In this document: one piece after another, positions 2,792 to 62,173 of the stretch
Position numbering within the stretch: position 1 is the stretch's first letter
Layout: the number at the start of each line of letters is the position of its first letter
Source of the DNA: Negaprion brevirostris
Taxonomy: Eukaryota
Assembly: GCA_030324005.1 (NCBI GenBank)
Contig: JARDVH010000121.1
Coordinates: 10,776,295-10,840,294 of the forward strand
Length of the DNA stretch: 64,000 nt
Direction: 5' to 3'
The notes under the pieces: generated by a model
What the model was told of the DNA's origin: nothing
Databases searched by the model: none
The model's input: only the letters and a program-made list of their open reading frames with translations
Translations under genes and position numbers: made by a program

Positions 2792-2818
2792 ATGAAGAAT
2801 TGCGGAAAAAGAAAGCAG
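2792..2818 (+). CDS. 27-nt microexon (D)EELRKKKA
   Basis: ttccctcttactggcag|ATGAAGAATTGCGGAAAAAGAAAGCAG|gtaaag. Confidence 0.85.
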
Positions 2819-5800
2819 GTAAAGTTCTTAGGAATAGTATGTTTTTTGTGGTATTGGAGTAAATTGTAGAACAAGCCAAATCAGAGTGGCAATTTTGATG
2901 TGCCAATTGACTTGATGTATCACTGACGTCCAGCTCTAATTAAGATCCAGATGTTTATTGCCAGCTCCCTTTATTTTTAGTGAATTTCCACTGGATAGAC
3001 ACAATGTCAATTTTTGGAAAAAATCACTATTGCTGTTTCACTTGCAAACAATGTAAACCATTCACACTTCGCACTTTTACTATCTGATACTTTCATTATT
3101 ACAAGAAAAACTGGATAGTGTGGGTTCAACTTTTCTGGACAATCTAGAGGACGTTGGATGACTTCATCAATTCTTTTAAGTTTACAATGGTGTTTGGCAA
3201 AGTAGCCAGCAAATGATCCTTCCATTGTTAGAGATTAAAATGAGTGGTCGGTAATAATATTTACTAACAAACACAGGAAATAATTCAGCGACACGACTTT
3301 ATTTTGCTGTGAGTGGTTAGAATAATGGACTTGTTACAAAAAGTGGCAATTGAGGTGAATGAGATTATGGCTTTATGGAGCAGCAAAATATATAGATGAG
3401 AGAGAAACGAATGTAAGTATGTGCTTNNNNNNNNNNNNNNNNNNNNNNNNNNNNNNNNNNNNNNNNNNNNNNNNNNNNNNNNNNNNNNNNNNNNNNNNNN
3501 NNNNNNNNNNNNNNNNNNNNNNNNNNNNNNNNNNNNNNNNNNNNNNNNNNNNNNNNNNNNNNNNNNNNNNNNNNNNNNNNNNNNNNNNNNNNNNNNNNNN
3601 NNNNNNNNNNNNNNNNNNCTGGTTTCCATTGGGCATGCTACATCCTCAACAGCATACCCGAACAGGTGCCAGAGAGTGGCACCGAGGGGTTTTTCACATT
3701 CATCAATTGTAGTGTTAATACACTCCTATTTATGACACTAATAAGTAAAGTCAAACTTAGTATGGCCACAATCAGTTGGACCGAATGTCATGGTTTTCCA
3801 CCTTGAATTACATGCCAACCGACGTAGCACACATATCCTGCACCTTGCCTTGTAGACGCAATGGATCTAGCACTGCTCCTCTTCAAGTTCCAGCTCTCCA
3901 TATCATGAAAACTTTAACCGATGTTTTAAACATTATTTTCGTTGCAGAGGTAACAGCTCTGCAGAAGAAAATACATGATTTAGGTAAGGGATCACTTCAA
4001 CTATCGCTTTGTCTCAATAAGTCTGCATCCCGTTTGCCTTGACTGCAACATAAACAACAACAGCTTGTTTTTGTATAGCACATTATCAAAGCAGAGCATC
4101 CTAAGGGGCGCCAGAGTCCAGTTGTCAATTCAAAGCAATAATATTGTACAACAGCAAGCGAACAGCATATCAAGTTGCAAAAGTTTTATAAAAGAATTGG
4201 GCTTTACGCTTTGTTTTAGATAGAAGCAGTGAAAAATCTGAATGTGATGAGAAAAAATGGCATGCAAAAGGGCAGAATTCTGTTTCATAGCGAGTTGTTC
4301 CACTGGAGAACAAAAAAGACGGATAGGGAATTTTGCTACAGATTGGTAAGCATATGACAAAGTGATGAATGGCAATTCGTATCAGCTAGAGTAGCAGCAT
4401 GGAAAGAACATAAGAACATAAGAAATAGGAGCAGGAGTAGGCCATCTAGCACCTCGAGCCTGCCCCGCCATTCAATAAGGTCACGGCTGATCTGTAAGTG
4501 GTTCAGTTCCACTTACCCGCCTGCTCCCCATAACCCTTAATTCCCNNNNNNNNNNNNNNNNNNNNNNNNNNNNNNNNNNNNNNNNNNNNNNNNNNNNNNN
4601 NNNNNNNNNNNNNNNNNNNNNNNNNNNNNNNNNNNNNNNNNNNNNAGTGGTTCAGTTCCACTTACCCGCCTGCTCCCCATAACCCTTAATTCCCCTATTG
4701 ATCAGAAATCTATCTACCTGTGGCTTAAACATACTCAACGAGGTAGCGTCCACTGCTTCAATGGGCAGAGAATTCCAGATATTCAGTACCCTCTGAGAGA
4801 AGAAGTTCCTCCTCAACTCTATTCTAAACTGACTCCCCCTTATTTTGAGGCTTTGTCCTCTAGTTCTTGTTTCCGTTCTAAGTGGAAAAAATCTCTCTGC
4901 TTCTAACCTATCTAGCCCCTTCATTATCTTATAAGTCTCTATAAGATCACCCCTCAGCCTTCTAAACTCCAACGAGCACAGGCCCAATCTACTCAATCTC
5001 TCCTCATATGCTCACCCCCTTATCTCCGGTATCAACCTGGTGAACCTTCTCTGCACTCCCTCCAAGGCCAATATATCCTTTTGCAAATAAGAAATATATC
5101 CTTTCGCAAATAAGGAAGCCAGGATTAGCTCTGGTCTCAACAATGAAACTTCGAAATCAGATCAGGAGAGTATTGGATTAGCCTTGACAGGCATGCATGG
5201 GTATTACAATTACAGCTGAACTGTTGTAGTGGGAGTTACTACTTCATGGAATGTAAGCGTCTTTTCATAACATGTTGCACAACTGATGTCCCTTTGTTTA
5301 TGCTTTTTATTTTGCTGTTTTAAATGACCTTCCGTTCCTCTTTCTGATCAGATGAAAGAGTGAATCGAAATGGCAAAGGTAAGCTCAGACAGCAGCGTTG
5401 GTGAAGACCTCCGCCCCCACCAATGTACTATAATGTCCTTCGTAGAAAGGTTGTGTGTTCTTGCTAGCACAACTGCAAATGGAAATTGAAACAATGGTCA
5501 CCTTCATAAGATAATAGTGAAAGTAAGAGCAAATATGATAGTGTTAGCGCGAGTGGGTGAAACGACCACTACGGACTCAGGGTGAAGTTCAATAACAGCA
5601 CAGCTTTATTTTCTTTGCGTCGACGGAGAAGTACAGTCAGGACGTACAATCGGACTGCCCCTAAAGTGCTCTAAAGACTCCCCCACAAGGGGCTACAGTT
5701 ATACCTGAACTTCGCGTTTCAAATGCTAATCCTTTAATTACAGTGTTTGACTTCAGCCATCCTGTTTCGATGTTTTCGAGTGTTGGAGCAATTGTTTTAA

Positions 5801-11800: not shown

Positions 11801-14800
11801 AAAACTGTATAATTCCATGTTAAGCACTTGCTTCTCACCGGGATGACTCATTCGAGGACATTGGATTATATAGAAATTGCTGCTCGCTGCTTGGAATTGT
11901 CTTTTAATATAAATCAAAAATGATACCTTAGGTGGTTGACCATGGTAAAATTGTCCCTTAGTGTCTAAAGATGTGTAGATTAGGGGGATTTTTCATGATA
12001 AATTGTCCCTTAGATGTGCAGATTAGGTGAACTGGCCGTGCGAAATTGCTCAGTAGTGCCCAACGACATGTATTTTGGATGGATTAGCCATGGGAGATAT
12101 GTAAGTTTACGGGATAGGGCGGGGGAAGAAGATAAGATATTATGTCAGAGAGTCGTTGCAAACACGACGGCCCGAATGACCTCTTCAGCACTGTAAGGTG
12201 TGCACACTGTATGATTCTATGACCGGTGAAACTGATGTGGTAACAGTTGTCCGAGTGTCAGGGACCTGAACCAACATCTACTCGCCTTTTAAGAAAACAA
12301 CTACGTCGGTACGTCAGTAACGAAAAACGTTAACAACCTTCGTGACTGTTTGTTTAGTCACTTCCTTATTTCGTCTTTGTGAGTAAAAGCGAAATATTGT
12401 AGATGACGGAATGCAAGATCAGACAGAATGTGCTAGAAATAATGAGTAGGCCAGGCTACAGCTCGAAGAAAGAAACAACGTCAGTGTATCAAAATCGATA
12501 TTTCAAATCGATTACCTTTCGTGATGCTTCACGCAATAACTTGAAGTATTGTTAAAATTCTTTTTTCTCTATGCAAGCTGCGCCTCCTTCTGAGTTTGGT
12601 TAACTTCTCCTATTCCGTTTCGAATGCCGAGCATAAGCATTGTTTTGTATTCATTTCTTCTGGTACTCTTTCTGCTTCATTCATTTGAAGATTTCAAACT
12701 TGCGGTTTGTTCTTAAAACTATGACTCTTAACTTTGGATTATGTTAATAACAGTCGAAATGCATGGGTATCGGCGTCGTTTCTACGGCCAACACTTATTG
12801 CTGATACGCTGCTTGTAGGTTTGGACGTCAATTTTATATCAGGGTATCATTATTATTTACAAGTTAAATCTTGGCATGTATTGTTAATGAAATAGAGTAT
12901 ACAAATAATATAAATGTTTTAAGTGTTGCTGTGCCTGTGCAAAATATCAGTGAGGCAGTACTTAAAATATTGTGCATAACCTTAGTCCTCTTATTTCAAG
13001 AGGAATGTAGTTGCATTGGAGACGGTGAGAGGAGGCTATCTAGATTGATTCCAGAGATGAGGGATGAGTTTTACAAAGAGAGATTAGGCAGCTTATTTCA
13101 TCACTCTACGAAGTTTAGAAGATCTAATTCAGATGTACAAGACGATAAGGTGGATGGAGGAAGCAGTCATGGAGAGGGAATTCCTCTTGTGGAGAAACCT
13201 AGAACTCGAAGTCATGGCTTTGGGGTAAGGGGGTGACAATTTAAAACAGAAACCAGGAGAAATTATTTCTCAGAAAGGATCGTGGGCCTGTGGAATTCAC
13301 TAACTCATAACGTGGTGGATGCCGGGGCATTGAGTTAAGTTATGGAAGAGGTGGATTAATTTTTGATAAGTTAAGATTGGAAGGGCTGCGGTATACCGGC
13401 AGGAAAGTGAAGTAGAGATGATATCAGTTCTATTTGTATTAAGTCGCGGAGTACGATCGGGGCGCTAAATTTCCTAATCCTGCTCCTAACTCTTACGAGT
13501 TCTTGTGGGATTCTTGCAATTCAGTAATGTGAGCCAAAATCAGCTTGGTGAATAAGCAAGCTGTTTCTCATTGCATGGAGCGTTTATTAAAAGGGATTGC
13601 TCCAAAGGTCGCTATTTTGTTTCTGAAAAATGCACACCGTAAACCACATGACCAGTTATGCATAATGCTTGCTCGCTGAACATGAGTTTTATTTCCTGAC
13701 TTCTCCCATCGGATTTTTTTTTCCGCATGCGACTTCTAAACCTAGTTGTGGCAGATCATCCCAGGAATAAAATTTTCTCTCTAGACTGTTGAACCGAAAA
13801 TTCAGGAGAACTGCAGTTGCAATAACGAGAAAAGGTCGCTTCTCGGTTTCTGGCTAAGATCAACTAATCAGTAATCTGTAAACTGTCTGTGCTGTTATAT
13901 GATCTGTCTGAGGCCAGAACTCTTCATTCACCTGACGAACAGGGAAACCTCGAAAGCTGTGAGTTTACTATCAAATAAATCGGTTGGACTTAAACCTGGT
14001 GTTGTCAGACTTCTTACTTTGTTTACCCTAGTCCAACGCCGGCATCTGCGCATTAAGATCAAGTGTAGCATCGGTTCTAATCAGAGATGCAGCGCAACTT
14101 AAAAATGGTGAATGACTACTCAGATTCATACATTAACAGCCACAATCTGCTCCTTTCAGAGATGCTTAAACAGAAAACGAACTTGAGTGAGGCAGGTAAG
14201 AAGAACGGATTCTGCTACCCGCCTTTACTGGAAACGATCATTTCTGCTGTCGCTTGTGTCCCCGTTAAAGAAGTCTTCATATCAGTGGAAAGTGCTCAGA
14301 CAGCTCTGCTATATAAAAGAAGCCCACTTGAATGCAGTCGGCCTTCCCCAAANNNNNNNNNNNNNNNNNNNNNNNNNNNNNNNNNNNNNNNNNNNNNNNN
14401 NNNNNNNNNNNNNNNNNNNNNNNNNNNNNNNNNNNNNNNNNNNNNNNNNNNNNNNNNNNNNNNNNNNNNNNNNNNNNNNNNNNNNNNNNNNNNNNNNNNN
14501 NNNNNNNNNNNNNNNNNNNNNNNNNNNNNNNNNNNNNNNNNNNNNNNNNNNNNNNNNACCAGGAATGAAAATTACAGGGCATTCGTCCGCTACCAAAAAT
14601 GCATTCGCTGTATGTTCGTGTATGATACTAACTAAACAGTGATTGCGAACAAAACACATCAATGCCCTCACGAATCAGGCCATCAGCATGTATTGATTGT
14701 TTTTTTTTCATCATATTGCCAGCCACATTGCACATGGGTGGATGTGTTATGTCATCTTCGTGGCGAGGACAGTTTTAATGTTGCCTAGAAACGGGGTAGA

Positions 14801-47800: not shown

Positions 47801-50800
47801 AATATGCCTAGCCAAGATTGTTCCTTCCCATGTCAATTATTCTGCTGTTTTAAGCATGTGTTACTGACGTTCAGTGAGCAGAAAAAGAACATGTCTGCTC
47901 AAAATCTCTCAACTCGCACCAATGTAGTTATTGTAGAAGGATTGGAATGAGGCACTCACTGTGTGCTAAAATGGGCGGCGCGGGCTTGTAGGGCCGAAGA
48001 GCCTGTTTCCTGTGCTGTGTTGTTCTTTGTTGCTTGTTCTTTGTTCTTTACACCGCATTGCAAGGTGGAACAACCGGAGCACAAGCTACTCTACACAGAT
48101 GTTCTAGCTGGAACATTCCCTGAGCATGTTTTCAGCCTAGCAATGAGTAGTGTTGTCAAGTTGAGTTCTAAAGATGTAAACGTTGTTTGTAAAGGTGAAA
48201 AGAATGTTTTTAAATAACGTAAAGTAAGAAGGAGAACAACAGTGCATGGTCCCTTTAAAAGCTGCTTTGGTGCTCAATGCTGAGTTGTTTAAAATGCAGA
48301 CTTACAGAGTACACAGATAGCAACATTTGTTGCAGAGATCAAAGCATCAGGATTGCCTTGGTAACAGGCTCTGCAGTTTTTTGCATTTTGTTAGCCAATG
48401 AGTCTAAAAAATACACTCAGCTAAAGGGAACATATCAGAAATGAATTTGCTGTTGTTGCCAGCATCAAACCAATCCTCTCTGTTGCTGAAGTTGCCCTAC
48501 GAAGCTTTCTTTCCAGCTTCAACGCTTCTGTCATGGGGTTCTGTCTCAATCCAATGCTGTCAATGACAATCCTACCAGTGGAATCCATAGAATGCCTATA
48601 GTGCAGGAGGAGGGCATTCAGACCATTGAGCCTGAACCAGCAGCAATCACACCCAGGCTTAATCCCTGTAACGCCACATAATTACTCTGCTAATTCCCGT
48701 GACGCTAAGGGGCAATTTATCATGACCAACTAACATAACCCTAAGTGTGAGCAGAAACCAGAGGAACTCACACAGAAATGGGGAGAACGTACAAACGCCA
48801 CACAGACAGCCACTAGAGGCCCGAATTGAACACAGTCCCTGGTACCATGAAGCAGTAGTGTTAATCACTTTGTCACCATGCCGCCAAACTTTGCAAATAG
48901 TTGTATGTTTCCCTCCAACCCCCTGCTCACCATACGCATTCCATTGGACTCCAACATCTATGTCTCTCTCTCTCTTCATTCCTCACTCGACCAATATAAA
49001 ATATCAGAACACTGCCCCTTTCCCTCCTTGCCCCTTACTCGCTTAATTTCCTGAGTTCAATACATGATTGAAACAACACTGTGTCGAACTGGATCCCTGC
49101 TAATCTAATAGCCAGCTCTTTAATCAGATTTGACGACGTTTATCTGGATTCGTAATGTCTCTCGATTGCTCCGGAAGTTACATAAACCCTGTTGTCTCAA
49201 ACTTACTTTGCTAACAATGGAAGCAGTATAATTACCTTACACGTCTCGAAGTGACAGGATCGTGAATCCAACGTCTGGATGTTCTGGTGTCGCTATGACC
49301 AAAAAGTCATTGCTTCCCTGCTCCAAAAGAAAAAATAAGCACCAATAAAAAATTAAGTGAGAAGTCTAATTGGAACTGAAGAAACATGGAAATGAACATT
49401 TGCCTTTGATGTAACACTTCAGTTCACTGGGATATCTCAGCCACATGATTTCAATGTTGCGATAACTTCCTCCTTTTTGATAGGGTAGCATCGCAGTTGT
49501 GTCACTGGCCTAGTGACACGGGCATTGGAGTTTTCATCCGACAGCTATTGCAAGGCTTTATAAATTCAATGAAATTAACTTGGGATCTGTTTTGTCAACA
49601 GTGACACACAGATCCTAAACCCGCTTCCATCTGCAATGATCAGGTTGTAGATCCAAGTCAAACGCCAGAGCACTGAGTAAATAAATACAGGTTGTTGTGA
49701 AAGAGCAACAGTGAGGGATTATTGTACTTCCTGAAATCTCAAATGAAATGTTACACCAAACCCCTGCTCTCTCTCCATTGCACGCAGAAAGGCTTATGAA
49801 TATTCGCAGAATTATCTGTCATTAGGCTAATGTCAGTTCTAGACACTAAGGAATCGCTGCACTTGACATTCTAGAAAAAAATAAGAATCATATAAACGTC
49901 GAGAGGAGAGAAATGCAACAGAAACTATGTGCTGAGGTCGTCATTCTTCACCCCATGTTCATTGACTCCTCTGGAAATGAAATTATTTCCCTGCTGCGAA
50001 ACTTTCCTTTCTATTTCAAAAAACTCTGATTGTGATTCTTTTAGAACAAAGAATTCTGAAAAAGGACAAAGGTAAGTGAAAAAAAATCTAACTGAGGGCA
50101 TCACTCGACAGGCCAGAAAAGGAAAATGCTTATTGGACAAATATGCAAGACTGATGTTCCATTATAACAGGCAGCTAGCTTGCAAAAACATGGGCGGGTT
50201 GTTTAACGGTTGGATGATACGCGGCTTGTACTGCCATTCTGATTGATACATACAGGTTGGCTAGCATTTATTGACTGTCCCTAACCGTCGGTATTTGCCC
50301 ATGTGTCATCCACATATTGGTGTGAGCTTGGGGTCACAATGTAGGCCGAACTGTGAAAGTGGGGCAGATTTCCTTCCTGTCGAGGACATTAGTGACCCAT
50401 GTGAGCATTTTCTAAAATTGTCAATGGATTTAAATTTTTAATTCAAGATTTCTATGGAACTCGAATATAGATTTCAGCCGACCCTCAGATTTTGCTCTGA
50501 ATTTCTGGATTACTCGTCTATTGGTTATACCACTGAGCGACCACCTTCCCACCTGTACAGTTATATATTCCTCCGCTGTTCGGTGGCGACGTTATTTCCT
50601 GTGAACCAGTCGACAGCAGATTATTTCTCACTGCAACATTTTGAGTTCAGGGTCTATGTTAAATTTCGTAGCATTGTAATTATACTGAGATGAAATTTTG
50701 GATATGTCATGAATGGGACCAGGCATCGTGTTTCCTTGTGTACTCACCGCGGGATACTAAAGTTCTCCTGGAACTGTGTCTACCAATAACAGCAGACTTG

Positions 50801-53800
50801 TCACGCATGCTTTCCGCAATGTTTGTCGTTCTTGCACAGCAAGATAGAGATGTTGCTATGTACCACTTGCTTATTATTTTCTAGAGGGTACCTATGGGGG
50901 AGGGAGACAGCGACAAATTTGTGTGGTGGCAATAGATTTCACAGGAAAGCAATGGCCAGACTTGGAAAACATGTCATTATACGTGGCACGGAGTGAGATG
51001 CTGATATATGCTTTCCAAATACAACGCTACGTTTCACCGTTCTATTGTTTTTTTTTTCAATTTCCAATTGCTACAGTTCCGAAATGTTATTGCGCTAGTG
51101 GACAGGATTCTAAAGCCTAATTCTGAGTCTGATTAACTGAAAAATTATTCTTTTTTTTCTTTGCATACGGGAGTGGATTTCACATTAGAATGCCAAATCG
51201 AATTTGGCACAGAAGTGAGGCACCCACTGTTTGTTTCATTGGAGCATACAATCAATTGGCCGCGATTTGAACCCAGCTCTTAAACGACCACGATTTTCGG
51301 ACCATTCTAATCTGAAATCAATGACGTCAAGTTGTCTTTCACCTTTTTTGTGTTGTCTTTCAAGTTGTCTTTCACCATTATTTTGTGCTACCTTGCAACA
51401 TAGCTGAAGCCACGTTAGTTTCTACTCTTCCAATGTCCATTTTTGATCAGGTGACTATCTGGGAAAACTAACGGCAAATCACCCATGTGGAGTCATCTCG
51501 AAAGGAACAGGGCTTCTTATTGCACAGGATAAAGTAAAACAAAAAATGACAAGCCTGTGGTGAATACAACTGATCCCAACCTGGACAAAATAAATAATTG
51601 ATGCACTTGTGGGTCTACTTTATACAGGGCTTAATATACGTGCTACACCTGGAGCTCGTATTCAACGAGCCCTATGGGGAGATTAATCAATGATGCCCCA
51701 TGCATTTAAAAGAGGTAGTCACAATTTTAAATTAAGTTATATGAAAAGGGGGATAAAACAAAGTGAAACATAATTTGAAGAGCTTTTCAATATGTAACAA
51801 ATTCTTTTCTAGAATTGTTCTCTGCAACCTCAATCATTATTGAGGAAANNNNNNNNNNNNNNNNNNNNNNNNNNNNNNNNNNNNNNNNNNNNNNNNNNNN
51901 NNNNNNNNNNNNNNNNNNNNNNNNNNNNNNNNNNNNNNNNNNNNNNNNACCATACCGCTTCACCACTCATCCTCCGTTCTCATCAGCCCTGCAAAGCGTC
52001 ATGATTGGGCTTCATTGGAGCTAACATGTGGAAATCAGATGTAGGATGAAATCAAGTTTGTAGTTGGCAGGGTCTTCAACAGCTGGCAACAATACCTAGG
52101 GAGAGTCGAGAACTGAGGCAAAAAATGCCGAATGGAGATTTATGACACGGACGATCTTCGTGACGTCGGCCCACGTTATGGAGCATCAAGTTTACTTCCT
52201 TAGTAATGATGTAAGTGGAAGTTGATCTCGGAATCAAACGTATCACGAAGTTGGTGAACAAACCTGATTTCATCTCAAACTGTTTCCAGGTGAAGGCACA
52301 TAATTTCAGGTCGGCGACTAAAAACAATATCATAGTCAATTTTCAACTGGGCCCATTCATCCTTCGTAGTGAGAAGTTATTTCCATTCATTCTGTACAGC
52401 GTGTCAAAGAAGAATTCGGGTGCTTGAGTAATCACGGACGAATCGAGAAAAAAATGGTATTGGGTTAGGATGAAACATTTTTTACCATTAACGTAATTCT
52501 TATGAGTCGTTTGTAGATATTTTTAAAAAGATGGGTCTCATGGATAGAGTTACAAGAGGCAATGGTGGACGAGCAGGAATCCAAGCCTTTTGCATGATCC
52601 CATGCAGGGTATTTCATCAGTAAGAACGGGTGCAATTGAGAACAATTAAACACAGGAGGGCAACCGTGGAGAGATGTTGAAATAGGATGCAGCAGTCAAC
52701 CATGAAAATTCATGGAGATCGGAGGAAAGGGAAAATAAGGGAATGGTTTGTTTTGCCACACATATCTATGTATGCATTATGTAAGTATGTACGTATGTAT
52801 TTCTCTCTTTATCTCTCTGTTTATCTATCTATCTGTCTATTCATCTATCTATCTACTTATTTCATTCTCTCTCGCTTTTTTGTCTATCTATCTGTTTCCT
52901 AGCTGTCTGACTGTCTGTCTTTCCAGCGCTTATTCTATCCATCTCTCTATCTCTTTCTCTGCCTCTCTCTCCATTATTCTATTTAATTATTATTTTCTGT
53001 TTTAGTCATAGGAAAACTAAAAGAGAGTATCGCTGAATTGGGTGAGGAAAATAAGTCCTTTAAGCGATTATTTGGAACAAGTCGAAATAGAGTAGCGTTG
53101 TTTTGTTGTCGTTGTTGTTATTCACAGTACTACGCGATGACGGATAAATAAGTATTTCAACATTGAGTGTGATTCCGTTTGTTTTACAAGCCAAACTGAC
53201 ACGCAATTGCAATGCAGACTTAACGAACACATAACTGGGGAAAGGTACCACACTATATTGGCCGAAATGAAATGCCATCATGATTTCGAAGATAGTTTTT
53301 GTGAATAACTTTATTTATCTGATTTATGCTCCCTCCAGAACAAAAATTTGAGAACAGAGACAGAGGTGAGGATGGGACTTGGTTTAATGGATGTCGGAAA
53401 TGGGAACTATCATTTTTTGTCCTCCACGAATCTTCTTTTTAGCCACATCGAATGTAACATTGGACGTTGGCCTTAGCAGGAAGTGANNNNNNNNNNTTCA
53501 AGTCCCTGTTTTCACAAGTCTCAAATTATTCTGCGTGTTAAAGGTGGACAGGTACCTGACTTGGCAAGCAACTCTTCAGTCGGGTATTTTAAACAACATG
53601 TTTTTTTTATATTTCACATTAATTACCATGTGTACATCACTCATTTGTCACAGAAATTGTTTTTTTTAATGTTCCCAAGGCATATCTTCCTTCCAAGTTT
53701 TCTCCTTCCTTCCTTCCTTCCTTCCTGCCTTCCTTCCTTCCTTTCTTCCTTCCTTTCTGCCTTTCTTCCTTCATTCTTTCCTTCCAGTCCTCCTTCCTTC

Positions 53801-56800
53801 CTGCATTCCTTCCTTCTTTCTGTCATTTTTCAGTGATACTCCTCTGCACTTCTGCAATCCATTCACTATTCCTTCTTTATCGTTCTTCCTCTCTCTTTTT
53901 GCCTTATTTTTCTTTTACTCCTTCAAGTTATGACGTGCTAACATAACTGTTTTCTTTTATTGTAGAAATATCAAACCTGAAAGCAAGTCTGCAAGACGCA
54001 GGTCAATGGAACCATTTTTGACTGTCTTTAATCTCAAAGGCACAGTAGCCGCTTACTGTAATGGATAGACATGATGCTTCAAATGCCTCACTTATAAGGA
54101 TGGCATGAACAGTCAAGTCTTGTATTCCCTTCGTATGGACAATTAAGAGGCGAGCTAATTGAGACCCACTATAAATCGATAATGTCATCTCTCATGGAGA
54201 GAAACTGCAGAGAACTGCAACACAAAGGGACTTGGGGTACTTGTACAGGAAACAGACAAAACGATCATGCAGGTGCAACAGTAATCAGGAATGCGACTGG
54301 AATGTTAGCCCTTTGTCCCAAAGCTATTGGAGTTTAAGAGTAGGAAAGTCCTGCTGTAACTTTACAATTTACTGGCTGGATTACACTATGAGTTGTTTTG
54401 TTCCCCATTTTTAAGGACAAATATTAATTCATCAGAGACAGTTTAGCACATGTTCACAGGAATGATCATTGGAATGGACGGATAGCTTACACTGAAATGT
54501 TAAACAGGTTGGGGTCCATTTATTGGATTTTTACAAGAATGTGCGGCGATCTCGCTGAAACAAATGGGATTTTTAAGAGGCTTGAAAGGGCAAATGCTGA
54601 CAGGATGTTCCTCCTTACGGGAGAGTCTAGGAAAGGGAGGAGAGTCTCAGAATAGAGAATCAGAATGAGCTGAGAAGGAATTTCTTCTCTCACAGGTCTC
54701 TGAGTCTTTGGAAATCCTTGCCAGACAGAGTTGTAGCGAGTACAGTTTATTTTCTGTACATTTAAGTTTGGGACAGATAGATTTTTTAACAGTAATGGAT
54801 TCAAGTGTTACTGGGAAAGGGCAGGAAAATAGTCATGAGGAAAGTCGGATCAGCAATGGTTCTGTTGAATAGCAGAACAGACTCAAATTCCGAACGGCTT
54901 AATCCTGTTCCTATTTATTTTGACATTGTGAAATGCATACAATGGAATTTCGGTAGGTGATTTTAAGTCTCTGATATTGCAGGATAGCTTTCCAATAGCA
55001 AAGGAAGTGTGGTCGACAGGATATTTATTTCGGTGGAGCATGTTACTTATTAATAAAAAAAATGTCCTGAACAAAGCAGGTCCTTATGCACTCCAGTATA
55101 TTCCATTTGGGTACTAACTTGTCATTGCCTTGAATTGACCTAAACTTACTCCGGAAAATCTTGAAAGTCTAAAGATAACAACTTAAAGGGAAAAAGTCCC
55201 TATGCTGACACAGCATCGTACTAAAGGACGTGCAATATGTTTCCGAGTTAGAAAAATACTTCAGAAATATATTTACCACTGAAATACTCAACAAGTGTGA
55301 ATACCAGAAATTGAGTTCTGACCAATGATAATTGCTTGCAATGTTGGCACTTCTGGGGTGTAAATGCCACGACACGAAGGAGACTTCACATGAAATTCGA
55401 GTCAAGTTGTGGGACCCTTGGCGTCTCTCCCGAAACGGACATCGGGCCTTGTTTAATCTCTCACCTGAAAGACAGGACCTCGAACAATTAATAATTAACA
55501 TTAATAATTCCAATCTGGAATATTTTCTCAGGTATATGGAATGAGACACCAGAGCACAATCCTCTCACTCAGAGTCCGTCGTGGTCTCAACTTTGAGAAA
55601 GAAAAGCCATCGTTATTCTCACATATGCAAAATTCCAGTAGTTTATTGAAATGTTCCTTCCAACTGTTTGACCACGTTTCATCTTGGAAATTATTTGAAA
55701 TAAATTGTGATTTTTTTTCATAATCAGTTTGTGCCGTGATGAAGTCCTTGAAGGCAGAGGACATTTAAAGTCGGAACTAGAGGTTGCGTAGCATTCCTGG
55801 TTGGAATTGAATTGCACATTCCGTTTTCAAAAAAAAATCTTAATTTTCCATCCTTTTCCAGAAGAAGAAATTAGTAGGAAAGACAAAGGTAAAGATCAGC
55901 CAACTGCGATGTGGGACATGAGTGGGAAATTGTGTCGATATCAGTTCTCGAACTCGCAAATATTAATCCCATTGACGATCATGGAGTTGAATATCAGTAC
56001 GTGTAGAGAATGGGAAATAGTAGTGATGTCGCCTGTTTTGCCTCCACATTGAAAATTGATTTTAAGTTAATGGAGAACCGTTGAATCATAATTTCGATTG
56101 CATTGTTGAGTTCTTTCCTGCAATGTTATTAGGACGGCAATGATCCTTTTTCATTCATTTGTACGAGTTAGGCGTCAGTGGTTTGCCAGCATTTATTAGC
56201 AATACCTAACTCACTTCAACTAAGTGACTTGCACTCACAGAGCATTTCAGAAAACAGCTGAGAGTCAAACGCATTGCTATGGCTCCGGAGTCAAATATAG
56301 GGTAAGGACGGCAGATTTCCCTTCCTAAAGGACGTTAGTAAATCAAATGAGTTTTTGCGCCAATCGGTAGTAGTTTCATGGTCATCGGCGCATTCTTAAT
56401 TCCACATTTTTTTATTGAATTCAAATTGCGCCACCGGCCGTGGCGGGATTCGTACTCTGGGCCACAGATCATTAGCTGAGCTTTTGGATTGATAGTCCAG
56501 CGATAATAAGACTAGGTTATTACCTTCACATATAGTGGCAGTGAATAGTCGGAGAAAGCTGCTCATGAAAACCCCGACCCATTTACCCCTGAAAGTAGCC
56601 CCCTGCCTACTACAGTTGTTCTGTTTCTGCATTTAGATTTACTCATTCCTGAAAGAACCAGCAGCCTTCCCATACACTAATAATTGAGTAAACTGGAATA
56701 CAATCGACATCTTCGCTGCTAAAAATAGACTGAATTACCTATGGCCCTTCATTCGATGTAGCCACATCGAACCAATTAGTAGATATTCCGACGAATGTGA

Positions 56801-59800: not shown

Positions 59801-62173
59801 AGAGCTGGAGAAACAAAAAGCCGTTCTGGAAACTACAGGTCAGTGGAATGTCCTGGCTCCAAATATTGATGCTGGAAAGGACATGCTCCCCGTTTCTCCA
59901 TTTGCCATTGGCTCAGTGAATTGTGATTCTGTTGTAGGCAGAAGCAAGAGAAGAGTGATTTTCTTCAATTTAAAGTATTGACAGAAAGAAATCGCTATGT
60001 ATCCCACTGAAATTTCACACTGTGTCTCCCTCCTTTGGAATCCTGCAACAAGTATCTTTATGCTGCACCCTAGTGCCAATTTCCTCGTGAATGCACTACA
60101 ACTAGCTATTCTTGATCGTTAACTTTCATTGCAACAGCTTTTGAATTGGCATCGTGTACACGATAGAAAGAATAGAAATTTCATCTGCCAAATTATTGGG
60201 AATACTGAAGACTTTTGCCTTCAATCTTCAACATTGCCCGTTTCTTCATCATGGAGTCCATTCCTCTCCGGAACGACTTCTTGGGCTTCGAAAACGTGGC
60301 TCCAGATTTGACCATATGTTCAACTTTTGAAACCAAAATCGGCTTGATCGCCAGTATTATTTCACTCAACTTAGTGCCTTTGTTATTTAGAAATTTGATT
60401 ATTCCAATGTTCTTCTGGGCAAGGTACAATTATTCAAACACGTCTCACGTCATCAGTGCTAAATCACCAAAACACAGGCCCAGTTTCTCAACAGATATAA
60501 ATTCCCTTCATCCATCACTCCTGAGCTTATTGATCTGCTTAGGCTTCTGCGATTACAAAAAATCAATAGAAAATTTTGNNNNNNNNNNNNNNNNNNNNNN
60601 NNNNNNNNNNNNNNNNNNNNNNNNNNNNNNNNNNNNNNNNNNTGTAATCTTTCTGTGGTTTTCAAATACCAGCTTCGTGTGTGTCCACGGTGCGATCGCT
60701 GTATTTGTCTGCTCTCCCTCCTCATCTTCCTTCTGTTCTTGTCTATCTCTTTCTTATTTTTTCTATTATATTGATTTGCAAGTCCGTGTCTATTTCTGTC
60801 GTTCTTGTTACTTTTGCTATCACTTTGTTCTCCTCCTCTGCTTACATTCCCTTCACCATAAACTCGTTTTATTCCTTGTTTCTGACGTCATTCTCAATTT
60901 TGCTCTCGTCTGCCTTCTGCTTCAATCAATTGTACCATTAATCGTGACAATTTATTTCAGAAAACAGTGTGAAAGAAAAGGTTAAAGGTAAGTGTAAAGC
61001 ACCGTGTTCCCTTACTAAAGTCAGCAGAAGGGATGTTTCCTGATAACGAACTGTATTGTCAAGAACCACATAGAATAATGTGGGATAAGATACACCAAAG
61101 AATCAGAGCTGTCAGAGCAGGTAAGAATGGAGTCATTGAGATGTACAGAACAGAAAGAGGCCTTTCGGCCCAACACATCAATGCTGGTCAGGTTTCAAAA
61201 GCTGAACTAGTCCCATTTACCATGGTCCATATTCTCCCTACCATTTCCTATCCATCTGCCTATCCTACATTGAATTTTGTAACTTTACCCCCTTGTCTGG
61301 CAGTTCATTCCATAAAAGCACTGCGCTCTGTGTGAAATAATTGCGCTCAGATCCCTTTTATATATTTCCTCTTTCACATTTAACCAATGCCATCTAGTTT
61401 TAAACTCCCCTATTCTGGGCAATGTACCTTGTAAGAAATCTCACAACACCATGTTAAAATCCAACAAGTTTATTTGGTAGTAAACGTCACAAGCTTTCTG
61501 GGCTCTGCCACTCACCTGACTAAGGGACAGAGCCCCAAAAGCTTGTGACGTTTACTACCAAATAAACCTGTTGGACTTCAACCTGGTGTTGTGAGACGTC
61601 TTACTGTGTTTACCCCAGTCCAAAGCCAGCANNNNNNNNNNNNNNNNNNNNNNNNNNNNNNNNNNNNNNNNNNNNNNNNNNNNNNNNNNNNNNNNNNNNN
61701 NNNNNNNNNNNNNNNNNNNNNNNNNNNNNNNNNNNNNNNNNNNNNNNNNNNNNNNNNNNNNNNNNNNNNNNNNNNNNNNNNNNNNNNNNNNNNNNNNNNN
61801 NNNNNNNNNNNNNNNNNNNNNNNNNNNNNNNNNNNNNNNNNNNNNNNNNNNNNNNNNTTCCTCATATGGCTAGCCTCCGTTTTCGGTGAGGGGCAACTCA
61901 TCTCAACAGCTACTCCACACAATGAACTCCAAACCTTATATTCACAACACATCTTTCAGTGAAAACGTTTCTTCGGAACGACCTTGTGAAATAAAGATCT
62001 TCTTCACGAGTGAAAACAGTGTTACTGTGTATTCTACTCAAAGCGTTCGTCACTTTCGAGCCACCCTCATGCTCCTTTTTATTTCATTGGCAGCCCACAT
62101 GCCAAAATAACGAAAATTTTCTTTGCTTTTGCTACAGAAACAGATAAGTTGAAGAAGCGTCTTCTGGACGCAG
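2792..62173 (+). CDS. Partial multi-exon gene: coiled-coil protein encoded by alternating 27/36-nt phase-1 microexons (5' and 3' ends outside window)
   Basis: 21 exons with pyrimidine tract+AG and G|GT donors. Spliced translation: DEELRKKKA EVTALQKKIHDL DERVNRNGK EMLKQKTNLSEA EEQLQIKTK GMEDLKISLGEA ESKLSSKIK EIQKMKEAFFEF DTKVESKEK EVGKIRNQLLDC [gap] ALEKAKKEIFDI EAKLTSKTK ELENEKNDAFDG EQRILKKDK VIGKLKESIAEL EQKFENRDR EISNLKASLQDA EEEISRKDK ELEKQKAVLETT ENSVKEKVK ETDKLKKRLLDA. No stops; clear heptad periodicity. Confidence 0.9.
3948..3983 (+). CDS. 36-nt microexon (E)VTALQKKIHDL
   Basis: attttcgttgcag|AGGTAACA...GATTTAG|gtaagg. Confidence 0.88.
4405..5091 (-). mobile_element. CR1-type LINE 3' fragment
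   Basis: ORF 4652-4996 reads LGLCSLEFRRLRGDLIETYKIMKGLDR (CR1 ORF2 C-terminus); tail CCTACTCCTGCTCCTATTTCTTATGTTCTTATGTTCTT. Confidence 0.9.
5352..5378 (+). CDS. 27-nt microexon (D)ERVNRNGK
   Basis: ttcctctttctgatcag|ATGAAAGA...GGCAAAG|gtaagc. Confidence 0.85.
5542..6080 (-). mobile_element. Solo LTR, copy 1
   Basis: TGTTA...TAACA termini, perfect 4-bp TSD ATAG on both sides, AATAAA on the minus strand; homologous to 8813-9464. Confidence 0.8.
8813..9464 (+). mobile_element. Solo LTR, copy 2 (inverted relative to copy 1)
   Basis: Reverse-complement match to 5542-6080 at both ends (tcttatcggacaacaaattttatgaaattgggc ... cactcgcgctaaca); flanks ATAAT/ATAAC. Confidence 0.75.
10400..10830 (+). 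mobile_element. CR1-type LINE 3' fragment
   Basis: VQKRFTRML...[29 protein letters not shown]. Confidence 0.85.
11021..11158 (+). mobile_element. Penelope-like short repeat with hammerhead-like core
   Basis: CTGACGA-a-GAGGGG-at-CCCCTC-GAAAGCTT followed by aataaatcggttggactaaaacctggtgttgt; related copies at 13921-14052 and 61510-61630. Confidence 0.6.
12880..13500 (+). mobile_element. Degraded CR1-type LINE 3' fragment
   Basis: RRLSRLIPEMRDEFYKERLGSL...KPRTRSH; 3' tail cctaatcctgctcct. Confidence 0.75.
13921..14052 (+). mobile_element. Penelope-like short repeat, second copy
   Basis: Clear similarity to 11021-11158; CTGACGA...GAAAGCT. Confidence 0.6.
14160..14195 (+). CDS. 36-nt microexon (E)MLKQKTNLSEA
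   Basis: ctgctcctttcag|AGATGCTT...GAGGCAG|gtaaga. Confidence 0.88.
15285..15311 (+). CDS. 27-nt microexon (E)EQLQIKTK
   Basis: gttgctatctttag|AAGAACAG...ACAAAGG|gtaagg. Confidence 0.85.
15650..16520 (+). mobile_element. Degraded LINE ORF2 fragment (CR1/L2-like)
   Basis: KNKAEAIAKIFNQK motif and downstream RT-proximal remnants broken by stops; boundaries approximate. Confidence 0.55.
16696..16996. repeat. Degenerate 15-bp minisatellite, about 20 units, open on both strands
   Basis: Units such as ctggatggtgaaaca, ccggaaggcctaaca, tcagaaggcataacc, ccagaaggtgataga; + strand (P/L)EGxT, - strand GVMPS-like. Confidence 0.8.
18366..18401 (+). CDS. 36-nt microexon (G)MEDLKISLGEA
   Basis: long pyrimidine tract...gttag|GAATGGAA...GAAGCAG|gtaatt. 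Confidence 0.88.
18850..19065 (-). mobile_element. HE1-like shark SINE, 3' part
   Basis: ggcccatcgagtctgcaccg...ggggcaatttttagcatggccaatc...cacatctttgg, shared with other SINE copies in the window. Confidence 0.7.
19220..20478 (+). mobile_element. CR1-type LINE with ORF1 (Zn finger + SGNH esterase remnants), internally deleted
   Basis: Cys-rich start, then VRGIDRHF, LPVP...FKFLGHWNRF, endonuclease remnant VESIWVEL...GVVYRPPNS, then the 3' tail directly. Confidence 0.75.
21229..21395 (-). mobile_element. tRNA-derived (HE1-like) SINE, 5' part
   Basis: ggactgtgggaggaaaccggagcacccggaggaaacccacgcagacacg; B-box-like GGTTCAATTCC on the minus strand. Confidence 0.8.
22150..22950 (+). mobile_element. 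Degraded CR1-type LINE 3' fragment
   Basis: YAKRLSKFVIYSLEFGRM; tail ttcttgtgttcttatgt. Confidence 0.65.
23006..23032 (+). CDS. 27-nt microexon (E)SKLSSKIK
   Basis: tgtttcttttag|AATCTAAG...ATTAAAG|gtacta. Confidence 0.82.
24380..25490 (+). mobile_element. CR1-type LINE fragments including RT C-terminus
   Basis: FADDTKVAGVVESVEGCQKLQRDIGRMQDWAEKWQMDFNPDKC; LQLYRTLVRPHL. Confidence 0.9.
26082..26345 (-). mobile_element. CR1-type LINE fragment (gapped)
   Basis: HLEKNGLIEQTQHGFVKGK and an AAGAACATAAGAAATAGGAGCAGGAG tail. Confidence 0.8.
26827..26862 (+). CDS. 36-nt microexon (E)IQKMKEAFFEF
   Basis: tactttctttccag|AAATCCAA...GAATTTG|gtaagt. Confidence 0.88.
27405..27810 (+). mobile_element. 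tRNA-derived SINE
   Basis: gtctgtgggagtctgcacattctccccgtgcttgcgtgggttttctccg, same family as 21229-21395. Confidence 0.75.
28942..28968 (+). CDS. 27-nt microexon (D)TKVESKEK
   Basis: cccacatgccatcag|ACACGAAA...GAGAAAG|gtaagg (weaker pyrimidine tract). Confidence 0.8.
31484..31519 (+). CDS. 36-nt microexon (E)VGKIRNQLLDC
   Basis: caccttctcactcaag|AAGTGGGA...GATTGCG|gtaagt. Confidence 0.85.
32255..32780 (-). mobile_element. SINE with internal ~52-bp tandem expansion
   Basis: About 6 degenerate copies of cacctaacctgcacatctttggacactaa..ggacaat..agcatggccaat. Confidence 0.7.
33592..33654. repeat. (CT)n(GT)n microsatellite
   Basis: Directly visible. Confidence 0.95.
34810..35160 (-). mobile_element. 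CR1-type LINE 3' end (gapped)
   Basis: FKSRVDRFLTDKEIKGYG; aacataagaaataggagcaggagtaggcc tail. Confidence 0.8.
36129..36276 (-). mobile_element. CR1-type LINE 3' UTR
   Basis: (gtaagaac)n taggagcaggagtaggccatc. Confidence 0.7.
36857..36892 (+). CDS. 36-nt microexon (A)LEKAKKEIFDI
   Basis: attttccaatag|CATTGGAA...GATATTG|gtgagt; first residue assumes the upstream exon ends in G. Confidence 0.87.
39094..39120 (+). CDS. 27-nt microexon (E)AKLTSKTK
   Basis: cacttttctctccag|AAGCAAAG...ACCAAAG|gtgaga. Confidence 0.88.
40120..40430 (-). mobile_element. Degraded SINE
   Basis: tttggactgtggaaggaaacctggagc...ctccacacagtcacccaaggcc. Confidence 0.7.
43151..43186 (+). CDS. 36-nt microexon (E)LENEKNDAFDG
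   Basis: attttctacag|AATTGGAA...GACGGTG|gtgagt. Confidence 0.85.
43826..44290 (-). mobile_element. CR1-type LINE 3' fragment
   Basis: Closely similar to 4405-5091. Confidence 0.88.
45400..47850 (-). mobile_element. Degraded LINE (CR1/L2-like) interrupted by a + strand CR1 whose 3' end is at 46747-46820
   Basis: Repeat-like motifs on both sides of the gap; CR1 tail ttcttatgttcttatgttctta near 46800; boundaries approximate. Confidence 0.5.
48580..48885 (-). mobile_element. SINE
   Basis: ggggagaacgtacaaacgccacacagacag...aattgaacac...caccatgccgcc. Confidence 0.7.
50045..50071 (+). CDS. 27-nt microexon (E)QRILKKDK
   Basis: gattcttttag|AACAAAGA...GACAAAG|gtaagt. Confidence 0.88.
52762..52980. 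repeat. Degenerate (TATG)n/(TCTA)n microsatellite
   Basis: Directly visible. Confidence 0.85.
53006..53041 (+). CDS. 36-nt microexon (V)IGKLKESIAEL
   Basis: ttttctgttttag|TCATAGGA...GAATTGG|gtgagg. Confidence 0.87.
53339..53365 (+). CDS. 27-nt microexon (E)QKFENRDR
   Basis: tgctccctccag|AACAAAAA...GACAGAG|gtgagg. Confidence 0.87.
53685..53920. repeat. Degenerate (TTCC)n polypyrimidine microsatellite
   Basis: Directly visible. Confidence 0.9.
53966..54001 (+). CDS. 36-nt microexon (E)ISNLKASLQDA
   Basis: ttcttttattgtag|AAATATCA...GACGCAG|gtcaat. Confidence 0.85.
54150..54920 (+). mobile_element. Degraded CR1-type LINE 3' fragment
   Basis: gagagtctaggaaaggg...agaaggaatttcttctctcacagg...tcctgttcctatt tail. 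Confidence 0.7.
55862..55888 (+). CDS. 27-nt microexon (E)EEISRKDK
   Basis: catccttttccag|AAGAAGAA...GACAAAG|gtaaag. Confidence 0.87.
56150..56540 (-). mobile_element. SINE-like repeat family (related copies near 10200, 21400, 36300, 50250, 62365)
   Basis: Shared blocks gtaaggacggcagatttccc, ttgaattcaaatt...gggattcg, ccagcatttatt. Confidence 0.55.
57357..58750. mobile_element. Cluster of degraded CR1 fragments (+ 57357-57740, - 57760-58180, + 58230-58750)
   Basis: WSMQINPDEPVMMHFGRSN; IKKAYRIISFISQGMNFKSRE; EEFKSAIGDYLKRKNVQG. Confidence 0.7.
59215..59650 (+). mobile_element. CR1-type LINE 3' fragment
   Basis: cattggagttgaaagaagtgggaggcgtctcatagaaatgtacaaa...ggcctcctactgtttccagtttcta. Confidence 0.75.
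59803..59838 (+). CDS. 36-nt microexon (E)LEKQKAVLETT
   Basis: tttaattttcag|AGCTGGAG...ACTACAG|gtcagt. Confidence 0.85.
60961..60987 (+). CDS. 27-nt microexon (E)NSVKEKVK
   Basis: aatttatttcag|AAAACAGT...GTTAAAG|gtaagt. Confidence 0.87.
61431..61630. mobile_element. Penelope-like inverted repeat (hairpin) element
   Basis: Arms ~61431-61507 and ~61523-61604 are reverse complements; same family as 11021-11158. Confidence 0.7.
62138..62173 (+). CDS. 36-nt microexon (E)TDKLKKRLLDA
   Basis: ttgcttttgctacag|AAACAGAT...GACGCAG|gtaaat. Confidence 0.88.

Follow-up and report, generated by a model that had tools for sequence, protein, structure and literature searches.

A gene of at least 262 kb in Negaprion brevirostris, built from alternating 27- and 36-nt micro-exons and a terminal B30.2 exon, is predicted to encode a long coiled-coil rod with a B30.2 head

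The 64,000 bases of Negaprion brevirostris DNA analyzed here (the window; G000:C121:10776295-10840294, with 3595 N across 26 gaps, in an assembly of 2.69 Gb and 96,185 contigs) lie within what we judge, on balance, to be one cartilaginous-fish protein-coding gene of at least 262 kb. The protein predicted from it has a rod part of no fewer than 730 residues and, after it, a B30.2 head; for this protein we propose a structure, a line of descent, and a role as a cytoplasmic tether. The gene model comprises two predicted steps, namely the joining of the exons in one mRNA and the pairing of two chains as a parallel coiled coil, and we hold it with high confidence; as a gene structure it is well supported by sequence and homology.

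An earlier note on this DNA had described 21 small exons, ten of 27 nt and eleven of 36 nt, and all of them are present on the + strand at the places claimed (Table 1). Each is flanked by AG and GT, ends in G (21/21), and shares phase 1; together they provide the 666 coding nt claimed, are separated by introns of 297-8781 nt, and when joined contain 0 stops, versus 14 and 21 in the other two frames. The two sizes alternate in 19 of the 20 steps (permutation p = 5.5e-5). The note had attributed the single break in alternation to an assembly gap, and the intron concerned (31484 to 36857) does contain 693 N and plausibly conceals a 27-nt exon; however, 40 of 66 introns across the whole array also have at least 100 N, so the gap is a plausible rather than a proven cause.

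Neither the minus strand nor shuffled sequence reproduces this series. Using a splice-site score that is independent of these exons (it was not trained on them) and a threshold of 7, eight candidates of 27 nt and 11 of 36 nt were found on the + strand, against one and none, respectively, on the minus strand, whereas other lengths between 9 and 120 nt gave a mean of 0.36 candidates each on the + strand. Stop-free candidates at threshold 6 numbered 20 on the + strand and 0 on the minus strand; 100 shuffles gave a mean of 0.68 and a maximum of 3, and 59 kb of control DNA past the gene end gave two on the + strand. These counts (20/0/2) are of raw candidates and possibly include a non-member. The weakest members in the window are those at 28942 (acceptor score -1.4) and 31484 (AAG acceptor), and a peptide-profile scan for exons of 15-69 nt yielded no others within the window. 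Candidates of 36 nt at 25290 and 554 and one in a TG repeat at 33618 were dropped. A 63-nt (27+36) AG..GT segment at 45191-45253, with an open frame and a K/E-rich end, was judged to be a chance occurrence; its acceptor is weak and it does not fit the repeat profile. No Rfam match was found in the window. Three pairs of interspersed repeat copies in the introns are 82-88% identical (window positions 4809-5036/44056-44288, 5539-5817/9186-9467, and 5923-6082/8811-8972), the first of which resembles a LINE 3' end.

Table 1. Micro-exons of the window, the gap at which alternation breaks, and the terminal exon. Positions are those of the window except for the terminal exon.
Feature	Position	Strand	Remark
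27-nt phase-1 micro-exon	2792..2818	+	23 further array exons upstream of the window, back at least 86 kb
36-nt phase-1 micro-exon	3948..3983	+	
27-nt micro-exon	5352..5378	+	
36-nt micro-exon	14160..14195	+	
27-nt micro-exon	15285..15311	+	
36-nt micro-exon	18366..18401	+	
27-nt micro-exon	23006..23032	+	
36-nt micro-exon	26827..26862	+	
27-nt micro-exon, weak acceptor	28942..28968	+	profile score 26.3, top non-seed match
36-nt micro-exon, AAG acceptor	31484..31519	+	
assembly gap, 593 N, in the intron where alternation breaks	32981..33573	.	may conceal a 27-nt exon (inference)
36-nt micro-exon	36857..36892	+	
27-nt micro-exon	39094..39120	+	
36-nt micro-exon	43151..43186	+	
27-nt micro-exon	50045..50071	+	
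36-nt micro-exon	53006..53041	+	
27-nt micro-exon	53339..53365	+	
36-nt micro-exon	53966..54001	+	
27-nt micro-exon	55862..55888	+	
36-nt micro-exon	59803..59838	+	
27-nt micro-exon	60961..60987	+	
36-nt micro-exon	62138..62173	+	followed by 27 micro-exons beyond the window and the terminal B30.2 exon
terminal PRY-SPRY (B30.2) exon	G000:C121:10951778-10952298 (= L013:1484-2004)		111 kb downstream

The gene that the earlier note had read from these exons is supported, but the window contains only part of it. Scanning 90 kb of scaffold upstream and 200 kb downstream showed that the array goes on in the same strand and phase for at least 86 kb upstream and for 107 kb downstream, with a B30.2 exon at its end. 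The final set consists of 71 micro-exons, 23 upstream of the window, 21 inside it, and 27 downstream; 35 are of 27 nt, 32 of 36 nt, two of 24 nt, and one each of 18 and 30 nt. They span positions -85,887 to 171,048 (extended window numbering), and the 521-nt terminal exon occupies 175,484-176,004. Across the whole array, 59 of 64 steps among the 27- and 36-nt exons alternate, a number not attained in any of 100000 permutations. The 71 micro-exons joined to the terminal exon encode 903 residues, of which at least 730 form the rod and 173 the head, and the joined frame contains a single stop, the terminal one, compared to 65 and 58 in the other frames. The array is still continuing at the upstream limit of the 90 kb scanned, and the 5' end lies between 10.361 Mb, where the previous paralogue ends, and 10.690 Mb; the upper bound on the gene span is therefore about 590 kb.

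A few decisions in assembling the set should be recorded. After the peptide-profile scan, the 27-nt candidate at -79,602 was swapped for exons at -78101 and -75189; the column-profile, codon-position, repeat-profile, Mantel, Narcine-alignment, hydropathy, rod-cysteine, and N-glycosylation statistics given below refer to the earlier set of 70 micro-exons, which included -79,602. Candidates at -36362 and 66812 were dropped for having GC donors, and those at 92376, 149862, 148318, 152306, and 90463 were also dropped. Least secure in the array are its last four micro-exons, which match the repeat badly and were selected by splice signals and frame. About 9% of the gene span is N, so a second terminal exon could be hidden, and the exons of the window could then belong to a separate gene. 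We nevertheless predict that the array exons and the B30.2 exon are spliced into a single mRNA. In contigs from four sequencing runs over the terminal exon, the intron runs into the exon, as in DNA, and none of those shown contains a splice joint. The last intron contains a very high-copy repeat (L013:841-1169) that attracts nearly all of the more than 100,000 contigs per run and is probably a SINE. Some 23 kb past the gene end (L015:4722-4958, about 198,720 in window numbering) is a Myb/SANT-like DNA-binding domain (Pfam PF13873, E 2e-13); Harbinger transposons typically encode domains of this type.

That the array might be a decayed remnant or a chance pattern that is never translated is hardly credible. 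Nothing positive speaks for it, and all 71 micro-exons have GT donors and are free of stops, even though exons of the same size are only 46-47% identical to one another. Conservation is nevertheless higher at second codon positions (0.53-0.54) than at third positions (0.34-0.36), and this combination of divergence with better-kept second positions points to an array that is old and under constraint at the protein level. The same bias, together with a B30.2 that remains intact and shares 52-72% of its residues with orthologues in sharks and rays, argues against decay.

The product of the array was described in the earlier note as a K/E-rich helix with a 9+12 = 21-residue, three-heptad unit, and the array bears this out, with a Fourier peak at 3.50 and hydrophobic columns at positions 4, 11, 14, and 18 (hydrophobic fractions of 0.88, 0.93, 0.83, and 0.93, respectively). 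Numbering the unit from the 27-nt exon places a at 4, 11, and 18 and d at 7, 14, and 21; the a positions are then Leu/Ile/Leu, and the d positions Lys/Leu/small or Leu. Lysine occupies position 7 in 26 of 33 units, so that each third d carries a conserved Lys, which would form a regular polar interruption of the core. Glutamate is found at position 10 (g) in 24 of 30 units and lysine at position 15 (the next e) in 19 of 30. In coiled coils generally, Ile at a, Leu at d, and g-e' salt bridges favor a parallel dimer. In the second step of our proposal, two chains would pair as a parallel coiled coil with a core of Leu/Ile/Leu at a and Lys/Leu/small at d, and with Glu(g)-Lys(e') pairs. The rod would be about 108 nm (730 residues × 0.1485 nm) or longer, and parallel pairing would place the two B30.2 heads together at its tip.

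Growth by duplication of a two-exon cassette, which the earlier note had proposed, can fairly be inferred from the alternation alone, but sequence similarity lends it nothing further: adjacent exons show no co-similarity either as 27-then-36 pairs (Mantel r = -0.14, p = 0.93) or as 36-then-27 pairs (r = -0.06, p = 0.75), and introns around similar exons have almost no homology, with only four short collinear matches, three of which barely exceed the exon. In the descent that we propose, the gene would derive from the 3' half of a butyrophilin-like ancestor, comprising the short juxtamembrane exons, a 27-nt exon before the PRY, and a single B30.2 exon; Ig exons of the butyrophilin type would have been lost or never present, and the heptad region would have grown longer as exons were added, with register preserved only by the 27+36 pair.

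The terminal exon encodes a PRY-SPRY domain (Pfam SPRY, E 1.7e-15), the structural model of which has a pLDDT of 84.6. A fold search with this model retrieved the B30.2 domains of TRIM7, TRIM15, and BTN3A, all at a TM of about 0.75, with TRIM7 and BTN3A about equal; by sequence, the best solved match is the BTN3A1 B30.2 (118 bits), and TRIM7 scores 98 bits. The closest database proteins are from Scyliorhinus torazame (72%), Chiloscyllium punctatum (65%), and Narcine (53%), and all are fragments of 171-289 residues. A midpoint-rooted tree was made of 61 B30.2 domains picked from the search hits (20 family, 11 butyrophilin, and 30 TRIM). The 20 family domains, from sharks, rays, a chimaera, and this genome, fall on one side of a branch with 100/100 support, separate from all the butyrophilin and TRIM domains, and are not placed inside the butyrophilins; the B30.2 of the family is thus its own clade, seen in cartilaginous fish only. 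The B30.2 of this gene groups with shark and ray orthologues, joining Narcine XP_069797409 at 100/99, and two paralogues of this genome pair with Scyliorhinus partners, which suggests that the family consists more of old, retained lineages than of a recent burst. Elsewhere in the tree, shark butyrophilin and TRIM domains intermix, on short branches (models P0293, P0299, P0305, P0317, P0325, and P0327), suggesting exchange of terminal exons within their cluster. Around residues 95-120 of the B30.2 (L013:1486-2001) is a family motif, Trp-Asn ... Arg-x-x-Gly, with a hydrophobic stretch, unlike the shark butyrophilin or TRIM domains; model confidence is lower there, and this region may be a ligand or dimer surface.

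This gene is not the only one of its kind in the genome. A 34-base pattern for the 27-nt exon gave 30 genome matches compared to 11 for a control; nine are in this gene, six more lie at 6.4-9.7 Mb of the same contig (C121), and six at 91.2-93.0 Mb of a second contig, C84, and on both contigs they adjoin family B30.2 exons. A loose pattern for the 36-nt exon did no better than its control (1443 versus 1543 matches), and two tighter patterns gave 5 and 12. There are at least five paralogous B30.2 exons on C121 (6.2-10.4 Mb) and one or two on C84 (91.2-93.5 Mb); the 6-11 Mb region of C121 holds six family B30.2 exons. The minus-strand pattern matches on C84 cover 91.24-93.0 Mb, and one paralogue there may be several hundred kb long. 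A frameshift in the B30.2 of a neighboring paralogue proved to be only apparent, being caused by a 10-N gap.

Relatives are also found among database models of other cartilaginous fish, annotated as 'zinc-binding protein A33-like', 'TRIM39/58/69-like', or 'nuclear-pore anchor-like'. XP_042192744 (Callorhinchus, 1697 aa), XP_038671249 (Scyliorhinus, 945 aa), XP_069797409/11 (Narcine), XP_055510696 (Leucoraja), GCB75680, and GCC29430 all fall in the family's B30.2 clade, and those that include a rod share the repeat. The joined protein is collinear with Narcine XP_069797409 through rod and head, at 43% identity over 286 residues. When the joined rod alone was compared by BLASTP with the retrieved proteins, nothing was found at E 1e-3, and a first profile search likewise gave nothing; the repeat profile, however, scores five family members at 167, 88, 47, 38, and 33 bits against 23, 18, 10, 6, and 13 for their own shuffles, and the weakest of the six at 16 against 7. 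With composition correction, four family proteins remain at E <1e-4. In five related genes, paired isoforms are distinguished by the clean presence or absence of 9-residue blocks (blocks of 6 and of 7 residues were each seen once), and for two of these genes the block corresponds to the exon immediately before the PRY. Such database isoforms usually rest on RNA-seq introns, and the blocks are indirect support for 27-nt exons being spliced, and sometimes skipped, in related genes.

The earlier note did not recognize this two-size architecture from any named gene. That stands for the 27/36 alternation, which did not turn up in the literature searched, but short heptad exons before a B30.2 exon are a known design; no published account of the family or of a 27/36-nt array was found in the literature searched, a coverage outside which most subscription journals fall. 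Butyrophilins, which are present in cartilaginous fish, combine IgV and IgC domains and a transmembrane region with several very short heptad exons and a B30.2 (PMC6790196, PMC8813856, PMC4046983); the heptad number varies in squamates (PMC12841164), and the juxtamembrane coil has been modeled as a parallel dimer (PMC10665462). The gene described here shares with them the very short heptad exons and a C-terminal B30.2 in one terminal exon, and human BTN3A1 is the best solved match of its head. Further, an aromatic residue 12 positions before the first PRY strand (-12) is found in most of the family relatives compared (Trp in four, Phe in one, neither in one) and likewise in shark butyrophilins P0305 and P0322 and one Amia protein; this gene has Cys, in other shark butyrophilin models the aromatic stands at -10 (two models) or is missing (two), and in two TRIMs it stands at -14 and -16 (16 of 19 database rows compared). 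Butyrophilins differ in having a few heptads rather than about 100, in having IgV and IgC domains of a type not found near this cluster, in lacking the 27/36-nt alternation, and in the separate position of the family B30.2 clade.

The layout raises the possibility of a genuine receptor of the butyrophilin or BG type, whose 5' end would carry a transmembrane exon and an Ig domain that has diverged. Its heptad exons and B30.2 are arranged as in butyrophilins (PMC8813856, PMC6790196), and the paralogous arrays on C84 lie among butyrophilin and TRIM genes, C84 carrying the main cluster of both in the genome. However, a search with the butyrophilin-type IgC domain (the IgC2 domain PF22705) gave 24 genome matches, none of them at C121 6-11 Mb or C84 91.2-93.5 Mb (55/55 candidates scored). 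The butyrophilin-type IgV gave 33, again with none in those two regions (70/70 scored), although divergent V domains or those in gaps could escape; 150 of 927 candidates were scored in a general V-set search. No Ig domain was found in any family model scanned, and we consider this receptor reading improbable.

Chicken BG genes provide the other obvious comparison. They have 13 to 36 small exons per gene and a long heptad tail, and form a tandem family (PMC4046983); the exons are of 21 or 24 nt, and there is one IgV, a transmembrane region, and no B30.2 (PMC4046983, PMC8813856). The tails are described as the selected part, with partners unknown (PMC8813856). Like BG, this gene makes a very long heptad region of period 3.50 from many small exons, but a BG exon holds one heptad, whereas here there are at least 71 exons and only the pair holds register, and an in-frame B30.2 stands at the end of the chain. 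The BG tail and this rod are probably parallel outcomes from a related ancestor. The gene would work as a butyrophilin's inner half might if drawn out past the length of a BG tail, while being a member of neither group. What is new, and related to but distinct from the heptad micro-exons plus B30.2 of butyrophilins and from BG tails, is the alternating 27/36 array and the long rod before the B30.2.

TRIM proteins (TRIM7, TRIM21, and shark A33/TRIM39-like models) also have a coiled coil followed by a B30.2 of the same fold. TRIM coils are short and antiparallel. TRIMs further differ in having RING and B-box domains, neither of which was detected in the seven family models scanned, nor did the TRIM-type coiled coil PF25600 match any of the seven; in the genome, 99 B-box matches were found among the 150 of 289 candidates scored, none at C121 6-11 Mb or in the family cluster on C84. 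Enterophilins, of mammalian intestine, have an extended leucine zipper and a B30.2 without Ig or RING, and so resemble this gene in a comparison by architecture alone. Enterophilin-1 binds SNX1 (PMC13749957). Alternatively, the protein could be soluble and cytosolic, with nothing but rod and B30.2 (a TRIM derivative lacking the RING, for instance, or an enterophilin-like protein), and act as a scaffold or filament. This would be consistent with the majority of family database models starting within the rod; in the ESM Atlas, clusters of chordate proteins 1277-1802 residues long that carry no families besides SPRY/PRY and coiled coil are a lead in the same direction. The models may instead be 5'-truncated, micro-exons defeating annotation, and the pre-PRY spacing is closer to butyrophilins than to the two TRIMs checked; this reading, too, seems to us improbable, to about the same degree as the receptor.

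The Callorhinchus and Leucoraja models have a 15-residue hydrophobic segment at residues 3-17, followed in Callorhinchus by basic residues. These are two of 15 family models; Hemiscyllium is perhaps a third, one has an internal segment, and eleven have none. Database models without a leader are often incomplete. Searching this genome with the first 306 residues of Callorhinchus gave nothing beyond one match at E 6.4, and the recovered rod contains no transmembrane segment (maximum hydropathy 0.23). In the last step of our proposal, the N-terminus would most likely be a short hydrophobic anchor, the rod and head would be cytoplasmic, and the protein would act as a long tether presenting a dimeric ligand-binding head. 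This role is proposed by its likeness to the supposed roles of the butyrophilin juxtamembrane coil and the BG tail, and for the topology and tether role on their own our confidence is evenly poised.

The same gene could also be read the other way around, with the leader as a signal peptide or type II anchor and the rod and B30.2 heads secreted or facing outward on a collectin-like stalk. The hydrophobic segment is short, starts at residue 3, and occurs in two distant lineages, and four of the five Cys residues in the regular rod are at a or d positions, where they would suit interchain disulphides outside the cell. Amia calva MBN3300211 (P0227) carries its B30.2 at the C-terminus, behind a long stalk of repeated heptads, and has a hydrophobic segment inside the chain; long-rod B30.2 proteins may occur in bony fish as well. 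On the repeat profile it reaches 31.6 bits, but this drops to 9.8 with composition correction. Moreover, N-glycosylation sites are not enriched in the rod (4 versus 3.1 expected), the leader is known from models of relatives and none is seen in the recovered part of this gene, and butyrophilin B30.2 domains are cytosolic (PMC6790196). On these grounds we regard an outward-facing rod as unlikely. A basic run ending in Lys-Arg, resembling a furin site, was also observed at about residues 59-64 of Callorhinchus XP_042192744 (P0197), ~45 residues past the leader; it would fit a secreted precursor if that model is right.

A bolder version, which we regard as slightly more doubtful still, is a family confined to cartilaginous fish, leadered and Ig-less, that holds paired B30.2 heads extracellularly or in secreted form on stalks of at least 100 nm, whose length and rigidity are set by a module of two exons and three heptads and tuned by micro-exon skipping. 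If true, a domain that is mostly known as cytoplasmic would here be used in a collectin-like way; the family would be at least as old as the split between chimaeras and sharks and rays, and annotation would have missed its genes as only about 1% of each is exon.

If our preferred reading, a single large gene with a cytoplasmic rod and head, is correct, then sharks and rays possess a family of several very large B30.2 genes, which current annotation presents as fragments named after TRIMs. Its existence would carry the butyrophilin/BG theme, with another exon unit, back to the jawed vertebrates that branched off first, and would bear on the function of long heptad tails made from micro-exons. 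With neither exon coding for an integral number of heptads, the gene would also be a natural test of the limits that register sets on exon gain and alternative splicing; skips of single exons are expected to break the coil, whereas skips of a pair are not.
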